DNA of 64,000 bases from a virus (lineage: Duplodnaviria > Heunggongvirae > Uroviricota > Caudoviricetes), in the IMG/VR virus record IMGVR_UViG_3300014205_000184, positions 3,162-67,161 of that record; one strand, given 5' to 3'. The notes beneath the pieces are model-generated. The model saw only the letters and a program-made list of their open reading frames with translations, was not told the DNA's origin and did no database searches. This document shows, piece after piece, positions 1 to 62,686 of this stretch. Numbering within the stretch: the first letter of the stretch is position 1; the number at the start of each line of letters is the position of its first letter. A program made the position numbers and the translations under genes.

Positions 1-1
1 A

Positions 2-328
2 AGAGAGTTTTTAAATGGTGATGCTCCGTACTGGAAGTATAATCAAGATGATGACCGTAAAAAGTATGATAGTCCTGATGGTCAAGTCTTAACGAAAGCG
101 TTGCTTGAAGAATTGTATTGGAATAGACAGATGTCAACAGTAGAGATATCCCGTGATTATTTCGGTAATATGATAAGCCCTTCAACAGTCTATACATGGA
201 TGAAGAAATACGGAATACGCAGAAGAACCCCATTCAATCAAATGCTCAGTCCTGATGAGTATGATGAATACCCCACAAGACAGACTCCTCTCCGTAATGT
301 TAAGAATGACAAAAACAGCGATTTTTGA
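2..328 (+). CDS. Homing-endonuclease-like protein, C-terminal fragment (5' end lies outside the window)
   Basis: The frame is open from nt 2 to TGA at 326-328. The tail LYWNRQMSTVEISRDYFGNMISPSTVYTWMKKYGI resembles the C-terminal HTH DNA-binding module of phage HNH/GIY-YIG homing endonucleases. Confidence 0.5.
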   Translation, partial: REFLNGDAPYWKYNQDDDRKKYDSPDGQVLTKALLEELYWNRQMSTVEISRDYFGNMISPSTVYTWMKKYGIRRRTPFNQMLSPDEYDEYPTRQTPLRNVKNDKNSDF

Positions 329-1142
329 TAACTACACAAACTGCATTTTTTATAAGCCATTAAGAAAAGATTTAGTTCTCATACAGTACCCGTGTAACTA
401 ATGGGTGAAAAAAAAGAGCTTTCCCAGGAATACACTTTTTTTTGGGGGTTGCTAGTTATGATATAAGGATGAGAACTAAATTATATCCTAATGGTTTATA
501 AATTTTAAAGTTTATCTAGTTAAAAACGGTCGGAATTGTTAACACTTTAAATATCTTACTTTTTATTCTTCCTTTCCAAAAGTGCGTTTTTTCGTTCTAC
601 AGTCGGAGAGCGTTTTTCTTTAAATGCAACTTAGCCCAAATCTAACTTTTTGACGCTCTCCACACAGGATGGAACCTTACTACTTTACTGTAAATTGAGC
701 AAGCGGTTATACCCTCCCAAACTCCTATACTATATACCTTATCCTATTATATATATATTACTATACCCATCTACCTTAATCTTTCACCGCTAACGCCCGA
801 GACACGAGTATCAAGTATCAAGTATCAAGTACTAAGCACCGCACCTCAACTGTCTACCCTCAAGCACCCTTTATCTTTTACCGATACACTACCACTTTAC
901 TAGTCTTTCACTCTCTAACTAGAGAGTAATCCGTTACTGTCTACTTAGACAGCAACACGGCGTGTCATTCTACACTCGCGCCTCGTGCGTAGGAATATGA
1001 AGCGTTTCCGAGAGACACGAGTATCGAGGCTCGCCTGTTCATTTTCGACTTTTACCCTCAAATTTCAATCCTTGTGTGGCCCAGCTCTAAAATTACTTTT
1101 GTTTGAGCTAAAAAAGAAGGTGAAGATAGTTCACCTAGACGC

Positions 1143-1170
1143 TTGCTTTTTAAAGTATATATGATATACT
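1143..1170 (+). promoter_or_regulatory. Sigma-A-type promoter (TTGCTT-N16-TGaTATACT) upstream of the first gene of the + array
   Basis: -35 TTGCTT at 1143-1148, extended -10 TG at 1162-1163, and -10 TATACT at 1165-1170. Confidence 0.5.
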
Positions 1171-1227
1171 TCTAGTGTAGTAGAAGTATGTAAACGAAAG
1201 TGCAAGCATGAGTTAAAGGAGAATAAA

Positions 1228-1593
1228 ATGCTTACCACCAAAGAGTCAAAGTATGTAAAGATGATGAAAGTTATACAGGAGAAGAATAGCAGAAGAGGAG
1301 CGGATAACCGTGCACGAGGGGAAGCCTTTGAGTTTAGAGTAATGCGTAAGTTCAAGTGTCGGAGTGATGTGATGTGGGTAGTAAGGAGTGCTGGTAGTCA
1401 TAGTATTATAGATATAATTGTGCAGATGAAGAATAAGAAGCAGGTGTGGATAACGTGCAAAACAAATTCTTATACAGAGCCGGGTGAGAGAAGAAAAATC
1501 AGGGAAGCGGTCGAGTGTAAGCCTGATAATGTAGAGGTTAGAGAGTATTATTATAGTTCGCCGAAAGTGATGAGGTATAGGACGATAGGGTAA
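1228..1593 (+). CDS. Hjc/PD-(D/E)xK-like nuclease (archaeal Holliday-junction-resolvase-like fold)
   Basis: RBS GGAGAA. The pattern GEAFEFRV...VVRSAGSHSIIDIIV...WITCK resembles the Hjc core G.fEr...vRsgGS...DiiA...EvK. The active-site E is not strictly conserved. Confidence 0.45.
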   Translation: MLTTKESKYVKMMKVIQEKNSRRGADNRARGEAFEFRVMRKFKCRSDVMWVVRSAGSHSIIDIIVQMKNKKQVWITCKTNSYTEPGERRKIREAVECKPDNVEVREYYYSSPKVMRYRTIG

Positions 1594-1605
1594 AGGAGGT
1601 CATTG

Positions 1606-1771
1606 TGAAAGTAAGAGTTGAGTATAGCAGTATATTTGCGGATAGAGCGTATGTGAGTGAAGTTATAGTAGGAGATTTCAAGTGTCGAGGCAAGAGTAAT
1701 GCGGTTAAGAACGATAGATTTCTAGGTAAGTTAAGTAAGTTAGTTGATGAGTATAATAAGCGAGGTGAGTA
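1606..1771 (+). CDS. Hypothetical small protein (GTG start)
   Basis: RBS AAAGGAGG lies 6 nt upstream of GTG. The ORF fills the gap between flanking genes and ends TAATG-coupled to the next gene. Confidence 0.4.
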
Positions 1772-2284
1772 ATGAGTATAACGCATTTGTTGCCTAGTGA
1801 AGAGATATGGTTGAAGAGCAGTAAAGAGTATAGGCATGATATTAAGGAGAGGTTGACGGAGATAAGTAAGGATATAGGCTCGAGTCCTGATGATAGAAAA
1901 CAGGCGAGTAAGATGTTAATGCAGTATTTCTCTGGGAGTGAGAAGAAGGTCGAGTCGTTGAATGTAAAGCAGTATGAGGCGAGGCCGAGGGGAAGGCAGA
2001 GGGAGTTTATCCCTGTGTTAGTGTGTAAGACGTGTGGGAAGGTTAGTGATAAGGTTATGGAGTATGAAGATGCGGCGCTTGTTAGTGAGAAGAGGAAGAC
2101 GTGGAAGAGGACGATACGGCCTAATTTAAACTTTTATATAAAGGTTAGCGGTAAGAAGCGTAGGAGTCGAAGAATATTCTTTGCGTATAAGATGGTTGAG
2201 TGTATACGGAAGAAGCATAAGTTGACGTTGAGGTATGAAGATAAGAGTATAGCTGATATGGGGTTTGCGTACCGCGGGAAGTGA
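1772..2284 (+). CDS. Hypothetical protein (contains a CxxC)
   Basis: 170-aa ORF, translationally coupled (TAATG) to the upstream gene. No recognisable domain. Confidence 0.55.
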   Translation: MSITHLLPSEEIWLKSSKEYRHDIKERLTEISKDIGSSPDDRKQASKMLMQYFSGSEKKVESLNVKQYEARPRGRQREFIPVLVCKTCGKVSDKVMEYEDAALVSEKRKTWKRTIRPNLNFYIKVSGKKRRSRRIFFAYKMVECIRKKHKLTLRYEDKSIADMGFAYRGK

Positions 2285-2309
2285 TGGGAACGGTGAAAGG
2301 AGATGATGT

Positions 2310-2612
2310 ATGGAGAAGAGTAAAAAGATTACACTTGCTACGCTTAAGAGTTTTATAAGGAAGAATAACGGGAATTTATATATAAATGTTACTTCTGATT
2401 TTAATGGTATGACTGACTGTGTTGAGCAGGTAAGTAATGGTGTAAGTAAGTGCGTATATGAGAATGAGTATGAGAGGTATACTTTAGGAATAAAAGGTGT
2501 TTGGGTGGTGGGTGGTACGAGAAACTATTTTACATCATTTGAGGATGATAAGTTTAAAGGTATAAAAGTATCAAATTGTTGCGGAAGTTTTGTTGTTATG
2601 GTGGTTAAATAA
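2310..2612 (+). CDS. Hypothetical protein
   Basis: RBS AAAGGAGATG. 100-aa ORF. Confidence 0.5.
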   Translation: MEKSKKITLATLKSFIRKNNGNLYINVTSDFNGMTDCVEQVSNGVSKCVYENEYERYTLGIKGVWVVGGTRNYFTSFEDDKFKGIKVSNCCGSFVVMVVK

Positions 2613-2818
2613 GAGGAAGAAGGTGTTAAATGATTAGATACACAAAACATTACCGTATAAAACTTGCGATTGCTCATTTGAAAGATTTCTTTTGTATATT
2701 ATTCTTTAATAAAGAATTCGGGTTTTCTGCCGATTTTTATGAAAAAGAAATTCTATTAGGTATAGATGTTCGTTCAAAACAAAGAACGATAAAATGAGGT
2801 GTGATGTGAAAGGAGAGA

Positions 2819-2980
2819 TATGAAGATGAGCGATAAAAAGAAGTATGAAGTTATTATATGGTGCGATGATAAACAGTGGCTTGTTGAAGCTACTGATAAA
2901 GGATATATACCCGTGGGTATGGTGGATAGGATAGTTGAGATAATGGCGAAACGTGAAATAAAGATAACCAAAACTATATG
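2819..2980 (+). CDS. Hypothetical small protein
   Basis: RBS AAAGGAGAG precedes the ATG. 53 aa. Confidence 0.4.
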
Positions 2981-2993
2981 AAATGAGGAGTGT

Positions 2994-3302
2994 ATGTACG
3001 AACTAATGAGGATTAGTGAAGATGAGTTTCATGTAATTAAGTTTGACCATGGTATGTTCCCCGAGCAGGATTATAGTGTAGTAAAGAAGGGTGTGATAAT
3101 ATCGTGCAATTGCATAGCGGGAAAGATACATAAGGTGTGTAAACACGGAGAATGGGTAAAGAGCGTGTTAAAAGGAAAAGTGAATGAGTTACCTGAGGGG
3201 GTGAAGTTAGTCAGGCAAGTGGATGGGGTTAAGATACGGGATAATTTCTTAAAGAATTTATTAAAAGTAAAAGAAATGAAAAAGAGGAAGGTGAAGGTAT
3301 GA
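2994..3302 (+). CDS. Hypothetical protein
   Basis: RBS GAGGAG. 102 aa. Lys-rich C-terminus. Confidence 0.5.
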   Translation: MYELMRISEDEFHVIKFDHGMFPEQDYSVVKKGVIISCNCIAGKIHKVCKHGEWVKSVLKGKVNELPEGVKLVRQVDGVKIRDNFLKNLLKVKEMKKRKVKV

Positions 3303-3367
3303 AACAAAAAACAAAGTATGTGAATGAGATAAGCGGTCGAATGAAGTTGATATAAAGGAGATGTGAT

Positions 3368-3637
3368 ATGACGGAGATAAAGTATGTATATTGCGAAACA
3401 ATGGAAAATATGGATGCGAGTCTAAAAGATAAGATGAAGATACATAGGTACGTTAAAACATTACAGAAAAGTAACATACAACTTATTGGGGCTTTAAAGA
3501 TGTTTTTAGATAACCCAGTAATCTATAAAGTTTCAGATAAGCAAGACTTAACGGACGAAATGCAGTTTGCAAAGAGGATGATTAGTAAAGCTGAGGACTT
3601 ATTAACAATAATGTTAAAAAAGGACCGTGAAGCATGA
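3368..3637 (+). CDS. Hypothetical protein
   Basis: RBS AAAGGAGATG. 89 aa. Confidence 0.5.
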   Translation: MTEIKYVYCETMENMDASLKDKMKIHRYVKTLQKSNIQLIGALKMFLDNPVIYKVSDKQDLTDEMQFAKRMISKAEDLLTIMLKKDREA

Positions 3638-3757
3638 AAAAGAAACGGTGTAAAAGTTATATAAAAGATATAGGGTGTGTTGCGGGTCAAGGATATCCAT
3701 TAGATGAGGAGTGTAGAGGTCATAAGAATAACGAGTGTCACGAAACAAGGAGTGAAG

Positions 3758-4129
3758 ATGAAGAACCCGGTAGCGTTGTTTATAGAGAGAAGATTAAAAA
3801 ATCAAGAGCGTAAGAATAGGACAGCGGCAGAGTTGATTTCGTGGTATTATTTAGATAAGTATGCGATTGAGTCAAGAGATTTACAGTATAAAAACGCACA
3901 GGAAGAAGTTAGAGCGTTAGGCTTGACGCAGATAAGTGTAAAAGGTAATGAGTTGTGTATTACGTTATCACGACCGGGGATTTTGATAGGCAGAAAAGGT
4001 GAGAATATCGATAAGTTTGAAAGGTATATGAATGATAAAGGCGGGTTTACGAAGATAAAAATTGTAGAAGATAGAGTTATCGGGTGTTCAATACCGTATG
4101 ATTATTCTGATATAGATGAGTTCATGTAA
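3758..4129 (+). CDS. KH-domain RNA-binding protein
   Basis: Internal start with AGGAG 6 nt upstream. The motif GILIGRKGENI is a KH GXXG loop. Confidence 0.5.
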   Translation: MKNPVALFIERRLKNQERKNRTAAELISWYYLDKYAIESRDLQYKNAQEEVRALGLTQISVKGNELCITLSRPGILIGRKGENIDKFERYMNDKGGFTKIKIVEDRVIGCSIPYDYSDIDEFM

Positions 4130-4295
4130 GAAAGGATGTTTCGATGGAATGTATAAAATGGTATTTCACGAGATATTTCAAGACACATTGGTTTAGATAT
4201 ATAATTCATCCAGTGCATAAGAGTGAAGATAATAAGTTTTTTAGGGTGTTGTGGTGGTATAGATATAACTATGACAGTGTAAAAGGAGTTTCAGT

Positions 4296-4538
4296 ATGAA
4301 CAAGTACGAAAAAGAGTTACAGAAATTAAAATCGGATGATGAAGTGTGCGGAGTAATAGAGTACTCTAAAGGGTATAGTAAAATTATTACAGCTGGGCAT
4401 GGGTATCTTGTAGTTCCGAGAGGAGATAAGAATTTCGAGAAAGCGGCTCAGATTTGTGCGTTTGGGTATATAGGTAAACACGCTGTATATCTTGAAGAAG
4501 ATTGTGAATTAGGTGAGTTCTTGAGAGGTGTGAAGTGA
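4296..4538 (+). CDS. Hypothetical protein
   Basis: RBS AAAGGAG. 80 aa. Confidence 0.5.
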   Translation: MNKYEKELQKLKSDDEVCGVIEYSKGYSKIITAGHGYLVVPRGDKNFEKAAQICAFGYIGKHAVYLEEDCELGEFLRGVK

Positions 4539-4717
4539 AAATAAACAAAATATTTTTAAGATATATTTTACAACGTTTACCTATGTATCATGATGAGGTA
4601 TTATCTTTAGAGCAGATTATAAAACATTTTGGGTTAGATGATGATAAAGATTATAACCCAGAAGCGACACAAGAAGAGTTGGTTGAGTATATAATGAATA
4701 AAATAAGTGAGGAGTAA
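4535..4717 (+). CDS. Hypothetical protein (GTG start overlapping the upstream stop)
   Basis: GTGA overlap coupling. 60 aa. Confidence 0.4.
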   Translation: MKINKIFLRYILQRLPMYHDEVLSLEQIIKHFGLDDDKDYNPEATQEELVEYIMNKISEE

Positions 4718-4718
4718 A

Positions 4719-5102
4719 ATGAAATGCGATAAATGCGGATGTGAAGGAGAAATATACATGGTCACGTGCAATAAGTGTAATAGGAGTACACATACTCAGT
4801 TGCCGTGGCATGTGCAGAAAGAAACATTGCCTGAGTTGTATATCGGCTCAAAAAAGGGATTGTGGAGCAATATGATAAAAGTGTTTGCAAGCCCAAGTAG
4901 AAAAGAAGAGGCAAAAGCAAATGCTGAGTTTATAGAACGTGCTTGTAATAACCATTATAAACTTGTAGAAACATTGAATGATATGGTTGAACGATGGGAA
5001 GCTGTAACCTCATTATTTAATGGGAAGGAATATAATAATGTTAGACCTGATACATCAATCATGCTTTGTAAACAAGTAATCGAAGAAGCGGAAAAGAAAT
5101 AA
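4719..5102 (+). CDS. Hypothetical zinc-ribbon protein
   Basis: RBS GAGGAG. N-terminal CDKCGC...CNKC Cys pairs. Confidence 0.5.
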   Translation: MKCDKCGCEGEIYMVTCNKCNRSTHTQLPWHVQKETLPELYIGSKKGLWSNMIKVFASPSRKEEAKANAEFIERACNNHYKLVETLNDMVERWEAVTSLFNGKEYNNVRPDTSIMLCKQVIEEAEKK

Positions 5103-5109
5103 CAAAGCA

Positions 5110-5359
5110 ATAACTGATGGCGTTCACGTAGAAAACGCAAACTATAATGCAAAGGGCAAGCGTTTTACTGATAGATTGAAATTACCGGAGAATTCGGAAG
5201 CTACGAGATAACAAAGTTGCTTAGCAATACGGAGTTATCTTGCCGAACGTGAAATGTGTGATATGACGTAACCGTAGAATTAGATACAAGACCCTACGGA
5301 AAACAATCACACCGTTCTATCGAGAAGCCCTGTTGAGAGTTCGATTCTCTCCAGTTGTT
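5110..5359 (+). ncRNA. tRNA-like / tmRNA-like structured RNA (paralog of the element at 32590-32825)
   Basis: Canonical T-arm GAGAG-TTCGATT-CTCTC at 5335-5351. A 7-bp acceptor pairing joins ATAACTG (5110-5116) to CAGTTGT (5352-5358). A D-arm-like hairpin GCGTT-N9-AACGC follows the 5' strand. The roughly 190-nt internal region is rich in stems. Both strands are non-coding. Confidence 0.5.
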
Positions 5360-5382
5360 GTTCATATAACAAGGAGTTTATA

Positions 5383-5715
5383 ATGAGAAAAGTACAATGT
5401 AATTGGTGTGAAAGTATATTTTACGAAGAAAAGATTACGCTTGATGGTGAAACTGAACATTGCCCAATTTGCAAGATAAGCGGGTATTTAATGGATATAC
5501 GAGATAATAAAAAAATATATCTTGAACCGAGTATGTTACCGCCTAAAAGAGGCTTTGTTTTAACAGGCGAGAAACGAGAACCGAAGAAAGATGAGTGGTA
5601 TTTGAGTGGAGCGATACCCGAGGCGTATCAAGCGTTTAATGATTTAAGTGAAAAGTATTTAATATTAAGAATGGTGAATATAAAGTATGTACCAGGGCAT
5701 TATGAATTAGCTTAA
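5383..5715 (+). CDS. Hypothetical zinc-ribbon protein
   Basis: RBS AAGGAG. Carries CNWC...CPIC. Confidence 0.55.
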   Translation: MRKVQCNWCESIFYEEKITLDGETEHCPICKISGYLMDIRDNKKIYLEPSMLPPKRGFVLTGEKREPKKDEWYLSGAIPEAYQAFNDLSEKYLILRMVNIKYVPGHYELA

Positions 5716-5730
5716 GAAAGGAGAGTTGTA

Positions 5731-6012
5731 ATGGCAAATGAGAAGAAAGGTCAGTTGCGTGTGTGGCATATACCCCAAGTTCCGGGTAAGGCGTTTAAAG
5801 TAAATGTCAAAGATGTAGTTGAGGCGATTAAGATACTGGACATACTTGCGAAGTATGATGATTTTGAGTTTCGAGAGAGAGTAAAACCTGATTATAGTAA
5901 TGTGCAAGGGTTAGAAGAGTTTGACGGTAAAGAGTGGTGTGAGTATTATAATGAAGATGGTCAGAGTATAACAGAAATAGCGGACGAGATGAGTGAAGTA
6001 GAGATAAAATAA
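5731..6012 (+). CDS. Hypothetical protein
   Basis: RBS AAAGGAGAG. 93 aa. Confidence 0.55.
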   Translation: MANEKKGQLRVWHIPQVPGKAFKVNVKDVVEAIKILDILAKYDDFEFRERVKPDYSNVQGLEEFDGKEWCEYYNEDGQSITEIADEMSEVEIK

Positions 6013-6260
6013 TGCTAAATAATAAAAGAGGATTTTTTGAAGAAGACTTATTTAAAATTATATGGGTAATATTGTTATTATCAATAATGTTGACACCCGT
6101 TATAAGTTTATTCAAAGCATCAGTAGAAGTTAAGGTGTATAATTCTAAATATAATACGCATTATACTCCATTTGAGTTTTTATTTGCGAGAGATACGATA
6201 TTAGATTATACAGGTGAAGGTAAACAACAGAAAATCAATTTAAAAGTGGAGAATAAATAA
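6012..6260 (+). CDS. Hypothetical membrane protein
   Basis: ATGA-coupled start. One hydrophobic segment IIWVILLLSIMLTPVISLF. Confidence 0.5.
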   Translation: MLNNKRGFFEEDLFKIIWVILLLSIMLTPVISLFKASVEVKVYNSKYNTHYTPFEFLFARDTILDYTGEGKQQKINLKVENK

Positions 6261-6261
6261 G

Positions 6262-6672
6262 ATGTGTGTCCACAAAGTATTAAGGAATAAACAGTATTAT
6301 GAAAAAGATAAGGTTTATGTTGGGTATAAAATATTGACGTATGAAAAATCAGCGTGTGAAAGAACTGGAAAATATATTACATTGTGTGCGAATAGAGTAT
6401 TGGAACCCAATAAATGGTTAAAAGCAAAACCAGCATCGAGTGATTTAGTATCACGGACATATTTGTATAGTAAAGGGTTTCATGCTTATATGACAAGAAG
6501 ACAAGCGGAGATTGAGTTTGTTAGAAGGGGGTATTGTCGTGATGTTGTTATAAAGAAGGTGTACTTAAGAGATATTGTATGCTCCGGTGAAAATATAGTA
6601 GGTGAAAAGATAATAGTAGCGAATAATATGATGGTGAAAGGTAGAATAAAAATAACAAAAAGGAGATGGTAA
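6262..6672 (+). CDS. Hypothetical protein
   Basis: 136-aa ORF coupled to the upstream stop. Confidence 0.55.
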   Translation: MCVHKVLRNKQYYEKDKVYVGYKILTYEKSACERTGKYITLCANRVLEPNKWLKAKPASSDLVSRTYLYSKGFHAYMTRRQAEIEFVRRGYCRDVVIKKVYLRDIVCSGENIVGEKIIVANNMMVKGRIKITKRRW

Positions 6673-6806
6673 TGACAAAAGAAGAAAGAAAAAAGCATCT
6701 GTATACAATAGCCAATTATCTGATAATGGAGCAGATGAAAGGTATTAAAATTGATGTAGAGGTTAGTGTAGCCATGAGTGCGTTATTGAAAGATGTAGAG
6801 AAATAA
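6672..6806 (+). CDS. Hypothetical small protein
   Basis: TAATG-coupled start. 44 aa. Confidence 0.35.
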   Translation: MTKEERKKHLYTIANYLIMEQMKGIKIDVEVSVAMSALLKDVEK

Positions 6807-6820
6807 CAAAGGAGGATGTC

Positions 6821-7000
6821 GTGTTAGTATCAAAACTGATTAAACAGTTACAGAAGTTACCAGTGGGGAGTAAGATTTCGATGTCAAGTGATGAGGAGTT
6901 AAATAACGTGTTTAAGAATTTTTCTATAGACCAATTAGAAGACAATCTTAAAGAATACATTATTGTGCCTGACGAGTCTTCGTCACAAGAGTGGGATTGA
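6821..7000 (+). CDS. Hypothetical small protein (GTG start)
   Basis: RBS AAAGGAGG 6 nt upstream of GTG. 59 aa. Confidence 0.35.
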   Translation: MLVSKLIKQLQKLPVGSKISMSSDEELNNVFKNFSIDQLEDNLKEYIIVPDESSSQEWD

Positions 7001-7189
7001 TTATGAGTAATATGAAATTCTTTTTTCTATGTGCCGTTATATGTGGCGCACATGGTAATGTGCAATTTTGTATGTTGTTTGCATCGCTTTGGCTGCTTGA
7101 GGTATATGCTTTTTTAGAGGCGAACAAATGAAACAAATTAAAATAAATGAGATGGATAAAATGATGAAATAGAGGAGAGGGGAGTTATA

Positions 7190-7408
7190 ATGTTTAAAAT
7201 AAATAGTGTAGAAGTGTTCGTTACGGCAAAAAAAGACATAAGTGAGAATAGTTTAAGAGATTTGGTTTTAAATCATAAAATCATAAAGTATCTTACAAGT
7301 AACGGTTGTCTTATAGATAATATAGACTTTGATGATTATTTAGGTGGTGGTGAAGCACAGTTTATAGTTACACTTTCATCAGGAGAACAGAATGAAAATA
7401 AAAAATAA
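7190..7408 (+). CDS. Hypothetical protein
   Basis: RBS GGAGAGGGGAG. 72 aa. Confidence 0.5.
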   Translation: MFKINSVEVFVTAKKDISENSLRDLVLNHKIIKYLTSNGCLIDNIDFDDYLGGGEAQFIVTLSSGEQNENKK

Positions 7409-32589: not shown

Positions 32590-32825
32590 GTAGTTGTGGC
32601 GTTGCATGGTGAAAACGCTGAGTTTTCGTATTTTCAATTGTATAGACAGCGTGTGTGTAGGCTGACAATCACCGATAACACAAGCAGGGCGAGGGTCTTA
32701 AACATTGTGACCATTAAAACACTGCCCATATAAATCATCATATGGGGATTCATCTCAAAGATGAGCGAGAGGGTTGGGTAGCTCAAAAAACTCTATACTA
32801 AAGCAGGTTCAAATCCTGCCAACTA
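32590..32825 (+). ncRNA. tRNA-like / tmRNA-like structured RNA (paralog of the element at 5110-5359)
   Basis: T-arm GCAGG-TTCAAAT-CCTGC at 32801-32817. A perfect 7-bp acceptor joins GTAGTTG (32590-32596) to CAACTAC (32818-32824). The D-like hairpin GCGTT-gcatggtga-AACGC lies at 32599-32618. An anticodon-stem-like helix joins GAGTTTT (32620-32626) to AAAACTC (32785-32791), enclosing about 160 nt. Confidence 0.5.
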
Positions 32826-32847
32826 CTATTTTTATAAAAGGAAAAAC

Positions 32848-35843: not shown

Positions 35844-36517
35844 ACAAACGTCAGATACTTAGACAAGTTTTAAAAAAAAGATGTAAAAAGTGTCATTGTA
35901 TAATTGATGATAGAAATAAACGTGGTTTCTGTGTCAAACATACAAATTTTTCAAGAGAGAGAAATTCTTTTTGGGGGATGAAGCATAGTAAGAAAACAAA
36001 AAATATAATGAAGCAACATCATCAAGATTTTCACGGAGAAAACAATCCTTTTTTTGGTAAAAAGCATACTAGAAAATCTATTAATAAAATGCGAAAATCA
36101 CATAAGAGTAACTGGTTAAAGTATGATACTAAAAAAAGAAATAAAATATTATATAATCTTATTACATCTAGTAGAAAAACAAGAGGAACTAAAATAGAAA
36201 AAATTATATCAAATTTTTTAAATATTTTGAATATAAAACATAGAAGACATGTACAAATGGGATTATATAACGTTGATTTTTTAGTAGATAAAAAATTTAT
36301 TATAGAATGTTTTGGTGATTATTGGCATTTTAATCCAAAATTTTTCAATTCAAATAATAAAATTAAAAATAAGCATAAGAAAGATAAGATTAAAAAAGAA
36401 ATACTAATAAAGAAAGGGTATAAATATCTTGTGTTATGGGAATATGATATTAATAATCAATTTGATGTCGTAAGAAATAAAATAAGGAGTTTTTTAAATG
36501 TTAAAAATACTATCTGA
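35840..36517 (+). CDS. Free-standing homing-endonuclease-like protein (NUMOD3 DNA-binding repeats plus a Vsr/DUF559-like PD-(D/E)xK nuclease)
   Basis: Carries FWGMKHSKKTKNIMKQ and FFGKKHTRKSINKMRKS (NUMOD3). C-terminal LYNVDFLVDKKFIIECFGDYWH is the DUF559/Vsr-type D...E.K core. Confidence 0.55.
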   Translation: MNKRQILRQVLKKRCKKCHCIIDDRNKRGFCVKHTNFSRERNSFWGMKHSKKTKNIMKQHHQDFHGENNPFFGKKHTRKSINKMRKSHKSNWLKYDTKKRNKILYNLITSSRKTRGTKIEKIISNFLNILNIKHRRHVQMGLYNVDFLVDKKFIIECFGDYWHFNPKFFNSNNKIKNKHKKDKIKKEILIKKGYKYLVLWEYDINNQFDVVRNKIRSFLNVKNTI

Positions 36518-37805
36518 GAATCTAAGAATCCCGATAAAATTATGGATAAGCAATATAGAAAACGGAGCCTTGGAACAAGCATGTAACTCTGCAAATCTAC
36601 CTTTTGCATTTCATCATATTTCAATAATGCCCGACGCTCATCAGGGTTATGGCGTTCCAATTGGGTCAGTTTTAGCGACAGATAGAGTAGTAATTCCAAA
36701 CGCAGTGGGTGTGGATATAGGTTGTGGAATGTGTGCAGTAAAGACTTCACTAAAAGCTGAACAACTAGATAAAGAAACTTTAAAGACAATAATGGGCAAG
36801 ATACGAGAAGCGATACCCGTAGGTAACGATAAAGATGGTAGACACGCTAAGAAACAAGATGAAAGTTTAATGCCTGTTCCTAAAAATTTAGGAGAATATA
36901 TTACAACAGAAAATCTCTTAATAAGAGATTATCCGATAGTATCTCAACAGTACGAATCAGCATTAACACAAATTGGCACTCTGGGCGGCGGCAATCATTT
37001 CATCGAAATACAAAAAGATAAAGAAGATAATGTTTGGATAATGATACATTCAGGGAGTAGAAATTTAGGGCATAAAGTAGCAACGCATTATAATGAGTTA
37101 GCAATTAAATTAAATCGTATGTGGTGTTCATGTGTTCCTACGGAATGGGAATTAGCATTTCTTCCAATAGAAACAGAAGAAGCTAAAAGTTATATGCGTG
37201 AAATGCAATATTGTGTGGATTTTGCGTTAGCTAATAGAAGTTTAATGATGGATAGAATAATAGATGTATTTGAACAAATTTTAATAGGTTTTGGACAAAA
37301 TCAAGTCCAAAATATTATATTTTCTAAAGCTATAAACATAGCTCATAACTACGCATCTTGGGAAAATCATTTTGGGAAGAATGTAATTGTTCATCGTAAG
37401 GGTGCTACATTAGCAAGAAAAGATACTATAGGTATTATACCGGGCTCACAAGGCACGAAGAGCTATATCGTTAAAGGTCTAGGTAATGTCGATAGTTTTA
37501 TGTCGTGTAGTCATGGTGCAGGACGTCTTATGAGCAGAACAAAAGCATGTAATGAATTAAATTTAGAAGATGAGATAAAGAAGCTTGACGACCAAGGAAT
37601 TGTTCATGGTATAAGAACTAAGAATGATTTAGATGAGGCGAGTGGTGCGTATAAAGATATAGGCGAAGTAATGAATAACCAAGTTGATTTAGTGGAAATA
37701 ATAACTGAGCTTCAACCATTAGCTGTTATTAAAGCTACAACTAATAAGGTTACCACGAAGGATGTTTTAGAATATTCAAAATCTATAAGTAATTTTTTAA
37801 AATAA
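36498..37805 (+). CDS. rtcB: RtcB RNA 3'-phosphate/2',3'-cyclic phosphate ligase
   Basis: RBS AAGGAG. Carries MPDAHQGYGVPIGSV, VGVDIGCGMCAV, and GTLGGGNHFIEIQ...IHSGSRNLGHKVATHY. Confidence 0.75.
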   Translation: MLKILSENLRIPIKLWISNIENGALEQACNSANLPFAFHHISIMPDAHQGYGVPIGSVLATDRVVIPNAVGVDIGCGMCAVKTSLKAEQLDKETLKTIMGKIREAIPVGNDKDGRHAKKQDESLMPVPKNLGEYITTENLLIRDYPIVSQQYESALTQIGTLGGGNHFIEIQKDKEDNVWIMIHSGSRNLGHKVATHYNELAIKLNRMWCSCVPTEWELAFLPIETEEAKSYMREMQYCVDFALANRSLMMDRIIDVFEQILIGFGQNQVQNIIFSKAINIAHNYASWENHFGKNVIVHRKGATLARKDTIGIIPGSQGTKSYIVKGLGNVDSFMSCSHGAGRLMSRTKACNELNLEDEIKKLDDQGIVHGIRTKNDLDEASGAYKDIGEVMNNQVDLVEIITELQPLAVIKATTNKVTTKDVLEYSKSISNFLK

Positions 37806-61649: not shown

Positions 61650-61826
61650 ATGACCTCACCACATATCGTATGCAGAGCTTGCGGAGCAACAGCAATATGT
61701 TGTTGTCTTATTATAGAAGATGAAGTGTGCGGATATATCTGTCCATATACATGCTTACAGTGTGGCTATGTTGAGTTGAGAGAAGAAGCTCTTGAGCGTA
61801 AAAAAAATAGATTAAAAACAACTTGA
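61650..61826 (+). CDS. Hypothetical small Cys-rich protein
   Basis: Carries CRACG...CCC...CGYICPYTCLQCGY. It is the last gene of the + strand array. Confidence 0.4.
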   Translation: MTSPHIVCRACGATAICCCLIIEDEVCGYICPYTCLQCGYVELREEALERKKNRLKTT

Positions 61827-61851
61827 CAAAGCATCAATTATGTGATATACT
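61823..61851 (+). promoter_or_regulatory. Consensus sigma-A promoter (TTGACA-N17-TATACT with extended TG) directly upstream of a terminator
   Basis: TTGACA at 61823-61828, TG at 61843-61844, and TATACT at 61846-61851. Confidence 0.5.
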
Positions 61852-61902
61852 ATATGTGAGTAAGAAAATCACAAGTCTTACTTTAGTCTCCTTTCTGTGT
61901 GA

Positions 61903-61941
61903 GCGGGCGCCGTACTCCTTTCCGGCGTCCGCTATTTTTTT
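61903..61941 (+). terminator. Rho-independent terminator at the convergence point of the + and - gene blocks
   Basis: GC-rich hairpin GCGGGCGCCG-tactcctttc-CGGCGTCCGC followed by TATTTTTTT. Confidence 0.6.
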
Positions 61942-62686
61942 AATCGTTTTTTAAAGTCGCTACTAAGAGCTTAGTTGTTGAGTCCTGTTTTCTAGACATA
62001 GCTGTTAAAAAACTAGCCTTGAGACCACTTACAGCATTATAAACATCGGTTGCTCTAGCTAACATTGCTTTTGAACTAGCTATTGTCGCAGATTTTGTAG
62101 TATCAGAATCAGATAGTGACTCGGCAGTACTTACCACTGCTTGAGCTGTTTTCATTGTAGCCTCAGCAGAGGCAATTGATATATTAATAGCTCCTAACCC
62201 CTCATCAATACTTTTGACAATTAAAGCCGCATCATCATGCAACCCATCATACTCTTCTGTCTTAGCCTCTAAGTCAGCCTTAGCTTTTTCAATCTTAGGT
62301 TTAATTACCTTATTCCACCATACCGTGATTATAGGCCATAGACCAAGATACGCTAACACAACTATAATTACAATAGCTATAGCGCCTAACTTCCAAAACT
62401 TCTCCCATAACGTCTCGGGTGGTTCAGTAGCCACTGATTGATATGACGTGTCGCTATATTTATCTTTAACAGGTATAAGCTTATCAGGATGTTGTGGGTC
62501 AACTTGATACAACGTCCTTTCACTTTGTATTACACGGCTTGCTTTAGTTTGATTTTTATCTCCGCTAACGATACTATTAATCCCCTTACCTATATTTGGG
62601 ACAGCAAAATAGCTTATCAGCCCTATAACTCCTATAATCGCTACTAGTTCAAAACCTGTAAAACCTTTTTTATTCTTCATTCGCAT
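61940..62686 (-). CDS. Membrane protein with a type IV pilin-like N-terminal signal
   Basis: RBS GGGGGTAGAGAG precedes the ATG. The N-terminus MRMKNKKGFTGFELVAIIGVIGLI matches the class III prepilin motif G|FTxxE. A second TM segment and an Ala/Ser-rich C-terminal half follow. Confidence 0.5.
   Translation of the reverse strand: MRMKNKKGFTGFELVAIIGVIGLISYFAVPNIGKGINSIVSGDKNQTKASRVIQSERTLYQVDPQHPDKLIPVKDKYSDTSYQSVATEPPETLWEKFWKLGAIAIVIIVVLAYLGLWPIITVWWNKVIKPKIEKAKADLEAKTEEYDGLHDDAALIVKSIDEGLGAINISIASAEATMKTAQAVVSTAESLSDSDTTKSATIASSKAMLARATDVYNAVSGLKASFLTAMSRKQDSTTKLLVATLKND

Follow-up and report, generated by a model that had tools for sequence, protein, structure and literature searches.

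In phage T7, the early promoters A1-A3 are preceded by arrays of 7-bp repeats that lie beside the terminal repeat. The heptads of the omega (ParB) repressor of plasmid pSM19035 have the consensus WATCACW, and the protein HutP binds NAG triplets at a spacing of 7 nucleotides (nt) on RNA. For full activity of the omega system, at least four contiguous heptads are needed (PMC9499535). In the divergent early/late region of phage phi29, bound proteins and hairpinning of the DNA set the timing of transcription (PMC3100819). Here, we describe a region of comparable build, positions 329-1227 of a 64,000-nt stretch of DNA (hereafter the window) from an uncultured tailed phage (IMG/VR record IMGVR_UViG_3300014205_000184). 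The region is genuine and conserved, a divergent intergenic stretch of unusual length that is rich in repeats. Its sequence points to a part of an early-transcription control/insulator zone between the divergent arms of an approximately 130-kb phage, a reading that we hold to be probable, albeit with reserve. As a kind of feature, it may belong to the known phage early-promoter regions, possibly coupled to an origin, while its polar GAG-N4 arrays and the accompanying sequence blocks are possibly new.

The left end of T7 resembles this locus in its gene-free stretch of about 0.9 kb before the first early gene, its strong host-polymerase promoters and its 7-bp repeat arrays. However, the T7 region is located at a defined DNA end and is one-directional, whereas the region described here lies between divergent arms, its arrays reverse polarity, and the two share no sequence similarity. 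With the omega system, it has contiguous 7-bp units in common, direct or inverted, near promoters. The window holds six contiguous NAG-N4 units (799-840) and three more (1012-1032), and thus the omega-type layout of at least four units. The units themselves differ (GAGTATC/AAGTATC instead of WATCACW), and the arrays are situated 110-300 nt from the promoter and not over it. Phage phi29 (promoters A2c/A2b/A3, proteins p4 and p6) likewise has a compact divergent promoter region with promoters of Gram-positive style, but this covers a few hundred bp with defined p4 boxes, whereas the zones considered here extend over 0.9-2.2 kb and both arms are apparently early. A + strand RNA of 700-905 would resemble a Rho-dependent terminator in being C-rich (31.6%), G-poor (8.7%) and weakly structured; such a tract of at least 80 nt is followed by potential pause hairpins within 910-952 (910-927 and 937-952). 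However, this likeness to a rut site is not specific, because all genes of this phage have an antisense strand of such composition. Spo0A-box, Chi-site and HutP-type sites were considered as possible readings of the heptads, and the heptad differs at two conserved positions from the Spo0A box.

Architecture of the divergent region

Window position 1 corresponds to position 8774 of L001, the 130,247-bp metagenome source contig in ENA (L-numbers denote contigs), and skew, motif and copy counts cover 72.7 kb of this phage unless stated otherwise. Genes are oriented on the - strand left of L001 7812 and on the + strand right of window position 1228, the latter for about 60 kb. Between these leftward and rightward arms of small early genes extends a non-coding zone of 2.19 kb (L001 7813-10000), of which 329-1227 is the right-hand part; the left edge of the window falls inside the zone. 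Its sole open reading frame (ORF) is a gene for a helix-turn-helix (HTH) protein of 116 amino acids (aa). L001 and three shorter contigs from other samples are identical over window positions 1-1600, and 329-1227 is continuous and unchanged in all four assemblies. The source runs are ERZ27247358 (an ENA assembly), SRR6484325, SRR18595300 and JGI 3300037067. Promoters of the consensus TTGACA-17-TGnTATAMT are clustered within and around the zone, and the promoter/start-site regions of the left and right arms are inverted copies of one another. The features of the region and its borders are listed below, with the strand where one applies.

1-328, + strand: 3' part of the 116-aa ORF (L001 8751-9101), which starts 23 nt left of the window
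329-525: imperfect palindrome of about 200 nt with its centre near 425 (blastn against its own reverse complement, 60.6% over 226 nt, E 3e-17)
593-612, + strand: terminator-like hairpin with T-run (terminator scan)
605-613 and 653-661, + strand: 9-bp inverted repeat GGAGAGCGT/ACGCTCTCC (inverted-repeat search)
667-676, + strand: motif GGATGGAACC, 3 occurrences in 72.7 kb
700-905, + strand: core of the C-rich, G-poor tract (C 31.6%, G 8.7%), with an AT-only run at about 745-765
790-808, + strand: conserved block CTAACGC-CCCGAGACACGAG, running into an array of 7-nt period
799-840, + strand: six NAG-N4 units of 7-nt period (GAGACAC GAGTATC AAGTATC AAGTATC AAGTACT AAGCACC)
910-927 and 937-952: adjacent perfect hairpins ACTCTCTAACTAGAGAGT and CTGTCTACTTAGACAG (hairpin search)
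1007-1033, + strand: second block copy CCGAGAGACACGAG with three GAG-N4 units (GAGACAC GAGTATC GAGGCTC; array units 1012-1032)
1096-1104: global minimum of the cumulative G-C skew (1096) and purine skew (1104) over 72.7 kb
1118-1136: palindrome AGGTGAAGATAGTTCACCT with the conserved 9-mer GAAGATAGT (1122-1130), 6 nt upstream of TTGCTT
1143-1188, + strand: putative early promoter from sequence reading, TTGCTT (1143-1148), 16-nt spacer, extended -10 element TGaTATACT (1162-1170)
1189-1227, + strand: predicted mRNA leader of the first rightward gene, ending with the ribosome-binding site AAAGGAG (1215-1221)
1228-1593, + strand: 121-aa gene without a Pfam family, with which the rightward arm begins

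The -10 element of the putative promoter at 1143, TATACT, matches the consensus at 5 of 6 positions and carries the TG extension; a simple promoter scan did not list this register. The promoter core AAGTATATATGATATACT is common to two + strand promoters upstream of the window (L001 4668 and 4955) and to the TGATATACT promoter class. Promoters were found at the same position for the orthologous genes in four uncultured relatives (L005, L011, L033 and L034). Palindromes overlap both the -10 element (1153-1171) and the start-site region (1167-1188). The palindrome at 1118-1136 contains GAAGATAGT exactly 12 nt upstream of the -35 element, and the 72.7 kb contain three palindromes of the form GGTGnA..TnCACC, all of them 7 nt ahead of a -35 element. 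As a T-run follows on the - strand, the palindrome at 1118-1136 also resembles a terminator for antisense transcripts (terminator-scan match). Overall, 1118-1136 is a likely candidate for a protein-binding site.

The spacer between the large palindrome and this promoter (526-1117) carries arrays, blocks and short hairpins. Arrays of at least three GAG-N4 units occur nine times in 72.7 kb, compared to 0.64 expected, and seven of the nine are located in two promoter-rich zones; for arrays of at least three CTYG-N3 units, four were found and 0.03 expected. The arrays are polar: those in the left part of the zone show GAG when the - strand is read, those in the window (799-840 and 1012-1032) when the + strand is read, and at both places they are co-oriented with the nearby outward promoters. 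The motif GGATGGAACC has its other sites at L001 7347 and 8491, so that all three copies lie in promoter zones, with flanking similarity of about 35 nt. A weak hairpin with a T-rich tail (1018-1033) overlaps the second block copy. Distinct perfect short hairpins number five versus 0.7 expected (P ~0.003), and perfect inverted repeats of at least 9 nt number eight versus 1.1 (P ~0.007), most of the latter being overlapping pieces of 370-382/469-481. The fold of 560-1140 is marginally better than that of shuffled sequences (z -2.2 on the + strand, -1.75 on the - strand). An alignment of the left zone with 329-1227, made with a duplication in mind, yielded a shared motif of 39 nt only (z 3.9), and structured leader RNAs of the left zone and of L011 were unconvincing (z -1.0 to -3.1).

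All repeats and stems that the first-pass annotation had listed for this region exist, several of them 1-19 nt away from where it had placed them. The heptamer AGTATCA is found at 807-831 (3.6 copies, part of the 799-840 array) and not at 814-836. The 14-mer GAGACACGAGTATC is present in exactly two copies in 64 kb, at 799-812 and 1012-1025 and thus 213 nt apart, where the first copy had been given as 803-816 and the distance as about 208 nt. Both members of the palindrome pair are present, CTGTCTACTTAGACAG at 937-952 instead of 938-953. The arms of the 9-bp stem are at 605-613/653-661 (not 604-612/651-659), and the 13-bp inverted repeat, a part of the large palindrome, is at 370-382/469-481 (not 351-363/470-482).

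The HTH gene stands mid-zone and had been taken for a truncated homing-endonuclease gene. It is a complete gene for a single-HTH protein without a nuclease domain, cut only by the window edge, which removes 23 nt. Its promoter, TTGACA-17-TGaTATAAT at window positions -77 to -49, matches the consensus at 12 of 12 positions and has the TG extension. PHROG families of HNH endonucleases match only the HTH part of the protein (E 4e-7), and an exhaustive HMMER search identified the HTH unit as a repeat module of multi-HTH proteins, some of which end in HNH or LAGLIDADG domains. A tblastn search with 149 homologues revealed no significant nuclease trace downstream of the ORF; the best read-through alignment past the stop codon had an E value of 0.01 before multiple-test correction.

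The gene is followed by the large palindrome at 329-525, whose arms are 370-382/469-481, with an outer pair at approximately 349-363/487-501 and an inner stem, flanked by A8/T8, at 408-424/427-443. The stem is AT-rich, and the RNA folds with z -5.3 on the + strand and -5.1 on the - strand (-64 and -56 kcal/mol). With regard to the idea of an element resembling a miniature inverted-repeat transposable element, no copies were found elsewhere in 72.7 kb. A six-frame tblastn against the same 72.7 kb, run in search of a decayed gene, gave the palindrome as its sole match. In L011, the orthologous zone is without an equivalent palindrome (z 0.21); the HTH cassette and the palindrome are both absent there and look like an insertion. 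From its sequence, 329-525 is probably a putative terminator or insulator that would close the HTH transcription unit.

No ORF of at least 60 aa lies in 329-1227, i.e. from the preceding stop codon (326-328) up to the next gene's ATG (1228). The initial claim that ORFs of any size are missing was too strong, as four of 25-59 aa exist (650-793 and 985-1164 on the + strand, 945-1061 and 965-1042 on the - strand). They are not credible genes, because no start codon with a Shine-Dalgarno motif was found before the gene at 1228, a Pfam scan of 329-1227 in all six frames was empty, and 561-1110 lacks 3-nt periodicity (z -0.1, compared to z 3-17 for most neighboring genes). That no credible gene is present therefore still holds. 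ARAGORN found no transfer RNA (tRNA) in the window.

The C-rich, G-poor character of the + strand was confirmed, with a GC skew of -0.30 over 561-1110 and of -0.575 over 701-900. The first-pass annotation was also correct in calling this composition opposite to that of the window's genes and in singling out a special, repeat-rich non-coding region. The composition appears opposite because two gene arms diverge where the window starts. In the right arm, the GC skew amounts to +0.36 at third codon positions and +0.26 in intergenic DNA; since it is present in both, the asymmetry extends over the whole strand and goes with the orientation of the arm. Left of the HTH gene, the non-coding DNA (L001 7813-8640; skew -0.44) has left-arm composition as 561-1110 does, and the HTH gene forms a small island of neutral-to-positive skew within the zone. 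In composition, the tract 700-905 resembles the leftward arm and likewise a Rho rut site. The skew minimum (1096-1104) precedes the -35 element of the first promoter of the rightward arm by about 40 nt and marks the switch from left-arm to right-arm composition, and the cumulative skew maxima at 61864-61875 coincide with the point where the arms converge. The GC content is 0.295 in 401-600 and 0.40-0.45 in most of 700-1100, compared to 0.33 for the genome. Throughout the genome, the tetramer TCGA is scarcer than expected (observed/expected 0.18-0.5); enrichment is eight-fold for CTCGA in the left zone and 3.5-fold for CGAG in 329-1227.

The zone in uncultured relatives

Among deposited phages, nothing similar at the DNA level was detected. 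None of 50,697 phage records matched window 1-3000 in megablast, blastn of 329-1300 against phage records returned only 30-nt chance matches to Staphylococcus phages, and tblastn with the conserved 170-aa neighbor (window 1772-2284) found nothing among deposited phages. The primase-helicase reaches only about 30% identity to its best matches. In IMG/VR, searches that used the 121-aa gene, the gene for DPBB, the alignment of the 170-aa protein, a sigma-like gene of L011 and two DNA motifs likewise produced no relatives, or chance matches in coding DNA. Uncultured relatives were recovered via the conserved 170-aa neighbor; a first JGI scan yielded none, and a second with a 7-sequence alignment yielded L026-L034. 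The relatives thus obtained share 99.5% identity among themselves or have diverged too far for an alignment.

A non-coding zone of 0.9-2.2 kb directly upstream of the same first gene is present in four lineages, namely this phage, L011, L033 and L034. The 121-aa gene was used as positional anchor, because in each of the latter three a homologue of it comes first behind the gene-free stretch:

L011 group, zone 2627-3694 (1.07 kb): first gene with 50% aa identity
L033, zone 3885-4779 (0.9 kb): first gene with 37.5% aa identity
L034 (175-kb contig), zone 6253-7307 (1.05 kb): first gene with 34.6% aa identity; zone 5510-7307 (1.8 kb) if a 9-nt tandem array is counted

L011 is the nearest of the zone-bearing relatives and carries four tandem consensus promoters on the - strand and one on the + strand. 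Its GAG-N4 arrays number six (0.17 expected), four of them in or beside the zone, and their polarity is as in this phage. The block is found as CTAACGC..CCCGAGAAACGAGACACG at 3361-3388 in L011 and as CCGAGACAACGAG at 6849-6863 in L034, and a block CCCGAGA(C/A)ACGAG is common to this phage, L011 and L034. The arrangement GAAGATAGT-N12-(-35) recurs with exact spacing at two L011 promoters, as at window 1122-1130; in L034, GAAGATAGT is located upstream of a promoter, and the arrays have a different 7-nt unit, GAAGCGn. The zone of L033 is T-rich and has repeats of its own. The zones of L011 and L034 also contain the skew switch, at a distance of 209 nt and 1040 nt, respectively, upstream of the first rightward ATG, and L011 has a C-rich patch just upstream of its right-arm promoter (3377-3526, skew -0.23). 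A global alignment of the right halves of the zones of this phage and L011 was not meaningful; they have motifs only in common. That these motifs are kept in a relative with 45-50% protein identity in two neighboring genes argues for selection. Overall, several lineages have in common a long zone with a composition switch within it, and the exact sequences and the C-rich patch are lineage-specific.

Two tandem arrays in the relatives were also recorded. In L034, about 64 copies of the 9-nt unit CCAATC(A/G)TA occupy 5690-6270 and end exactly at the skew switch. In L011, a CAGACG-type array at 550-610 is the breakpoint of four of the five recovered assemblies of that group.

Proposed control function and competing explanations

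For the zone as an early-transcription control and insulator region, a reading that the first-pass annotation had not listed, the following course of events can be proposed. The HTH gene in the middle of the zone would be transcribed rightward from its own consensus promoter, and its transcription unit would be closed by the hairpin of about 200 nt at 329-525. The spacer of about 590 nt (526-1117) would then insulate the next promoter, retaining the C-rich, G-poor composition of the left arm, and it may act as a Rho-type rut tract on read-through RNA. Its GAG-N4 arrays, together with the CCCGAGACACGAG block, are putative binding sites for a regulatory factor of early transcription. Finally, 1118-1227 would start the rightward early operon from a sigma-70-type promoter with extended -10 element, around which three operator-like palindromes and the conserved upstream 9-mer are grouped. 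Use of the promoters and hairpins, protein binding at the arrays and insulation by the spacer are inferred from the sequence. A more far-reaching proposal is that GAG-N4 arrays, CCCGAGACACGAG block and GAAGATAGT-N12-(-35) constitute an undescribed cis-regulatory system of an uncultured family of large phages. Its factor would switch off or anti-terminate the early transcription of both arms from a central hub, reading either DNA in the manner of the omega repressor or RNA in the manner of HutP. We regard this as tentative and rather doubtful.

Several observations weigh against a control and insulator function. Every promoter and terminator assigned here is a consensus match, the -35 element of the 1143 promoter, TTGCTT, agrees at only 3 of 6 positions, and the canonical terminator scan made no call at the 329-525 hairpin. 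The heptad arrays of the window stand 110 and 300 nt upstream of the promoter and not over it. No candidate for binding the arrays was identified; the nine zone-flanking proteins scanned, five of them also compared with PHROGs, had no match to a ribbon-helix-helix family, in a search that was not exhaustive. The HTH protein cannot be the common factor, since its gene is absent from L011, which keeps the arrays. Moreover, the C-rich patch next to the promoter is found in L011 but not in L034 or L033 and is hence not universal, and the negative skew of a stretch that has no strong - strand promoter is not accounted for by transcription alone. Finally, L005, with 67% identity, has a methylase gene and a spacer of only 130 nt upstream of the same first gene, so the long zone is dispensable at that position.

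A replication origin had been among the first suggestions. In this explanation, replication would proceed outward in both directions from near 1100 with purine-rich leading strands, and transcription from the flanking promoters, AT-rich runs and palindromes would aid opening of the DNA. The cumulative GC and purine skew indeed has its minimum at 1096-1104 and its maximum at 61864-61875 over 72.7 kb, the switch recurs inside the non-coding zones of L011 and L034, the zone and the gap at L001 4143-5183 are the largest gene-free stretches seen, and AT-only runs (about 20 nt, 745-765), palindromes and repeats are present. However, the skew goes with the orientation of the genes throughout, even in the small + strand island that the HTH gene forms, and a minimum at the divergence point is therefore expected without an origin. 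DnaA boxes (TTWTNCACA) number 10 versus 11.9 expected in the window and are missing from 329-1227; the repeats are contiguous 7-mers or two-copy motifs and not helically phased iterons of 17-22 bp; the replication genes are located about 46-53 kb away; and most of the region has a GC content of 0.41-0.45 compared to 0.33 in the genome. Thus, of that suggestion the skew minimum stands, and an origin is unlikely. An even smaller chance is given to a leftward non-coding RNA, a purine-rich transcript of about 500-700 nt that would start from a weak - strand promoter at approximately 1068-1041, pass through 1033-561 and end at the 329-525 hairpin; purine loading linked to its transcription would account for the C-rich + strand. 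The composition is like that of leftward-transcribed DNA, the hairpin folds equally well on the - strand, and a match TTGAAA-16-GAAAAT at 1068-1041 stands back-to-back with the 1143 promoter. Yet this best match facing the region is weak (9 of 12 positions, poor -10 element), L011 has no equivalent, the - strand fold barely beats shuffles (z -1.75) and belongs to no Rfam family, and the GAG-N4 arrays here point rightward, whereas those of the left zone point as the nearby leftward promoters do. The antisense RNA of the first-pass annotation is therefore not supported.

The remaining explanations are more remote still. The region could be decayed coding sequence or the scar of a mobile element without present function, left behind by leftward genes or by the nuclease half of a homing endonuclease, possibly together with a former intron. 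Its composition is like that of left-arm coding DNA, the HTH ORF is related to the DNA-binding repeats of HNH/LAGLIDADG endonucleases and lacks the nuclease domain, the HTH cassette and palindrome are insertion-like in their absence from L011, and a decayed copy of a promoter and gene start exists elsewhere in the zone. However, neither 3-nt periodicity (z -0.1) nor a six-frame Pfam match was detected, the 149 homologues gave nothing significant past the stop codon in tblastn, long similarity to the left zone is limited to the 39-nt motif, and the motifs are conserved with a relative of 45-50% protein identity in two neighboring genes. An intron model match is missing as well. A group I intron with a free-standing homing endonuclease would share the neighboring ORF related to endonuclease DNA-binding modules, but here no intron RNA core, nuclease domain or interrupted host gene is present. 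Covariance-model scans of the region, the window and the upstream flank were without an intron match, and the proposed group I intron remnant was rejected. Group I and group II introns alike were discarded as candidates, as no catalytic RNA core was found and the flanks are promoters and not exons. Rfam returned only preQ1-II at E 1.4 for window 1-3000, no family at gathering threshold in the whole window, and nothing in the zones of L001, L011 and L013. Taken together, decay is very improbable. A marginally slimmer chance goes to a genome end, packaging site or terminal-repeat boundary, likewise among the first suggestions, in which case a linear genome would have its ends joined at the zone. 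The zone has early genes starting to either side, as is seen at the ends of many linear phage genomes, array polarity reverses across the zone centre, and in T7, 7-bp arrays flank the terminal repeat, which is reminiscent of the outward-pointing arrays here. To the left of the window, at a distance of 560-470 nt (L001 8208 and 8314), are the ends of three shorter contigs from this phage, but these ends fall in a 30-nt tandem repeat that varies between samples. They were discounted as termini because copy-number variation of tandem repeats ordinarily breaks assemblies. In addition, four assemblies are identical and continuous through 329-1227, and the contig breaks of the L011 group lie at another tandem repeat, 2 kb away.

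Neighboring features and significance

Further features were recorded in the left part of the zone. At L001 8161-8241 (window -612 to -532), 360-370 nt from the functional copy, the first leftward gene has its promoter, ribosome-binding site and start codon repeated in decayed form, now an ORF of four codons (MRKY-stop); promoter cassettes therefore get duplicated within the zone. The 30-nt tandem repeat mentioned above lies at L001 8288-8347 (window -485 to -426), and its copy number differs among samples, with L002 having an additional 30 nt; two independent Logan contigs begin inside it at L001 8314. The gap at L001 4143-5183 (window -4630 to -3590) is a second gene-free divergent promoter zone. 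It holds a degenerate heptad array of 110 nt (CTTGAGT x3 and onward) at L001 4537-4648, two + strand promoters with the AAGTATATATGATATACT core and one stretch at only 19.5% GC. The leftward arm also includes two tRNA genes on the - strand (L001 582-737; Rfam 65 and 59 bits).

Farther into the window, a DNA methylase gene at 23604-25439 is split by an intein with HNH and HTH domains (Pfam Intein_splicing, N6_N4_Mtase and HNH_3); several DNA methyltransferase genes are carried by the phage. Intergenic hairpins resembling tRNA T-arms (GAGAG-TTCGATT-CTCTC and GCAGG-TTCAAAT-CCTGC) are found in 5103-5382 and 32734-32847, where ARAGORN and Rfam call no tRNA, and an RtcB RNA ligase gene is located at 36498-37805. 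At 61823-61851, a consensus promoter TTGACA-17-TGTGATATACT is followed after about 50 nt by a GC-rich hairpin with T-run (61903-61945). Judged by these elements, 61823-61945 looks like a small RNA of about 90 nt; its position coincides exactly with the convergence of the + and - arms and with the peak of the cumulative skew (61864-61875).

For scans that proceed by windows, this locus holds a lesson, since an opposite composition at the edge of a window can simply mean the divergence point between two arms. The common motifs provide concrete DNA sequences for protein-binding candidates. This lineage has no relative among about 50,000 deposited phage genomes, and the occurrence of the same zone before the same first gene in four lineages offers an annotation anchor that marks the start of early transcription and the flip in strand composition. 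If the control and insulator reading is true, the region would be the switchboard from which both early gene blocks of these phages are launched.

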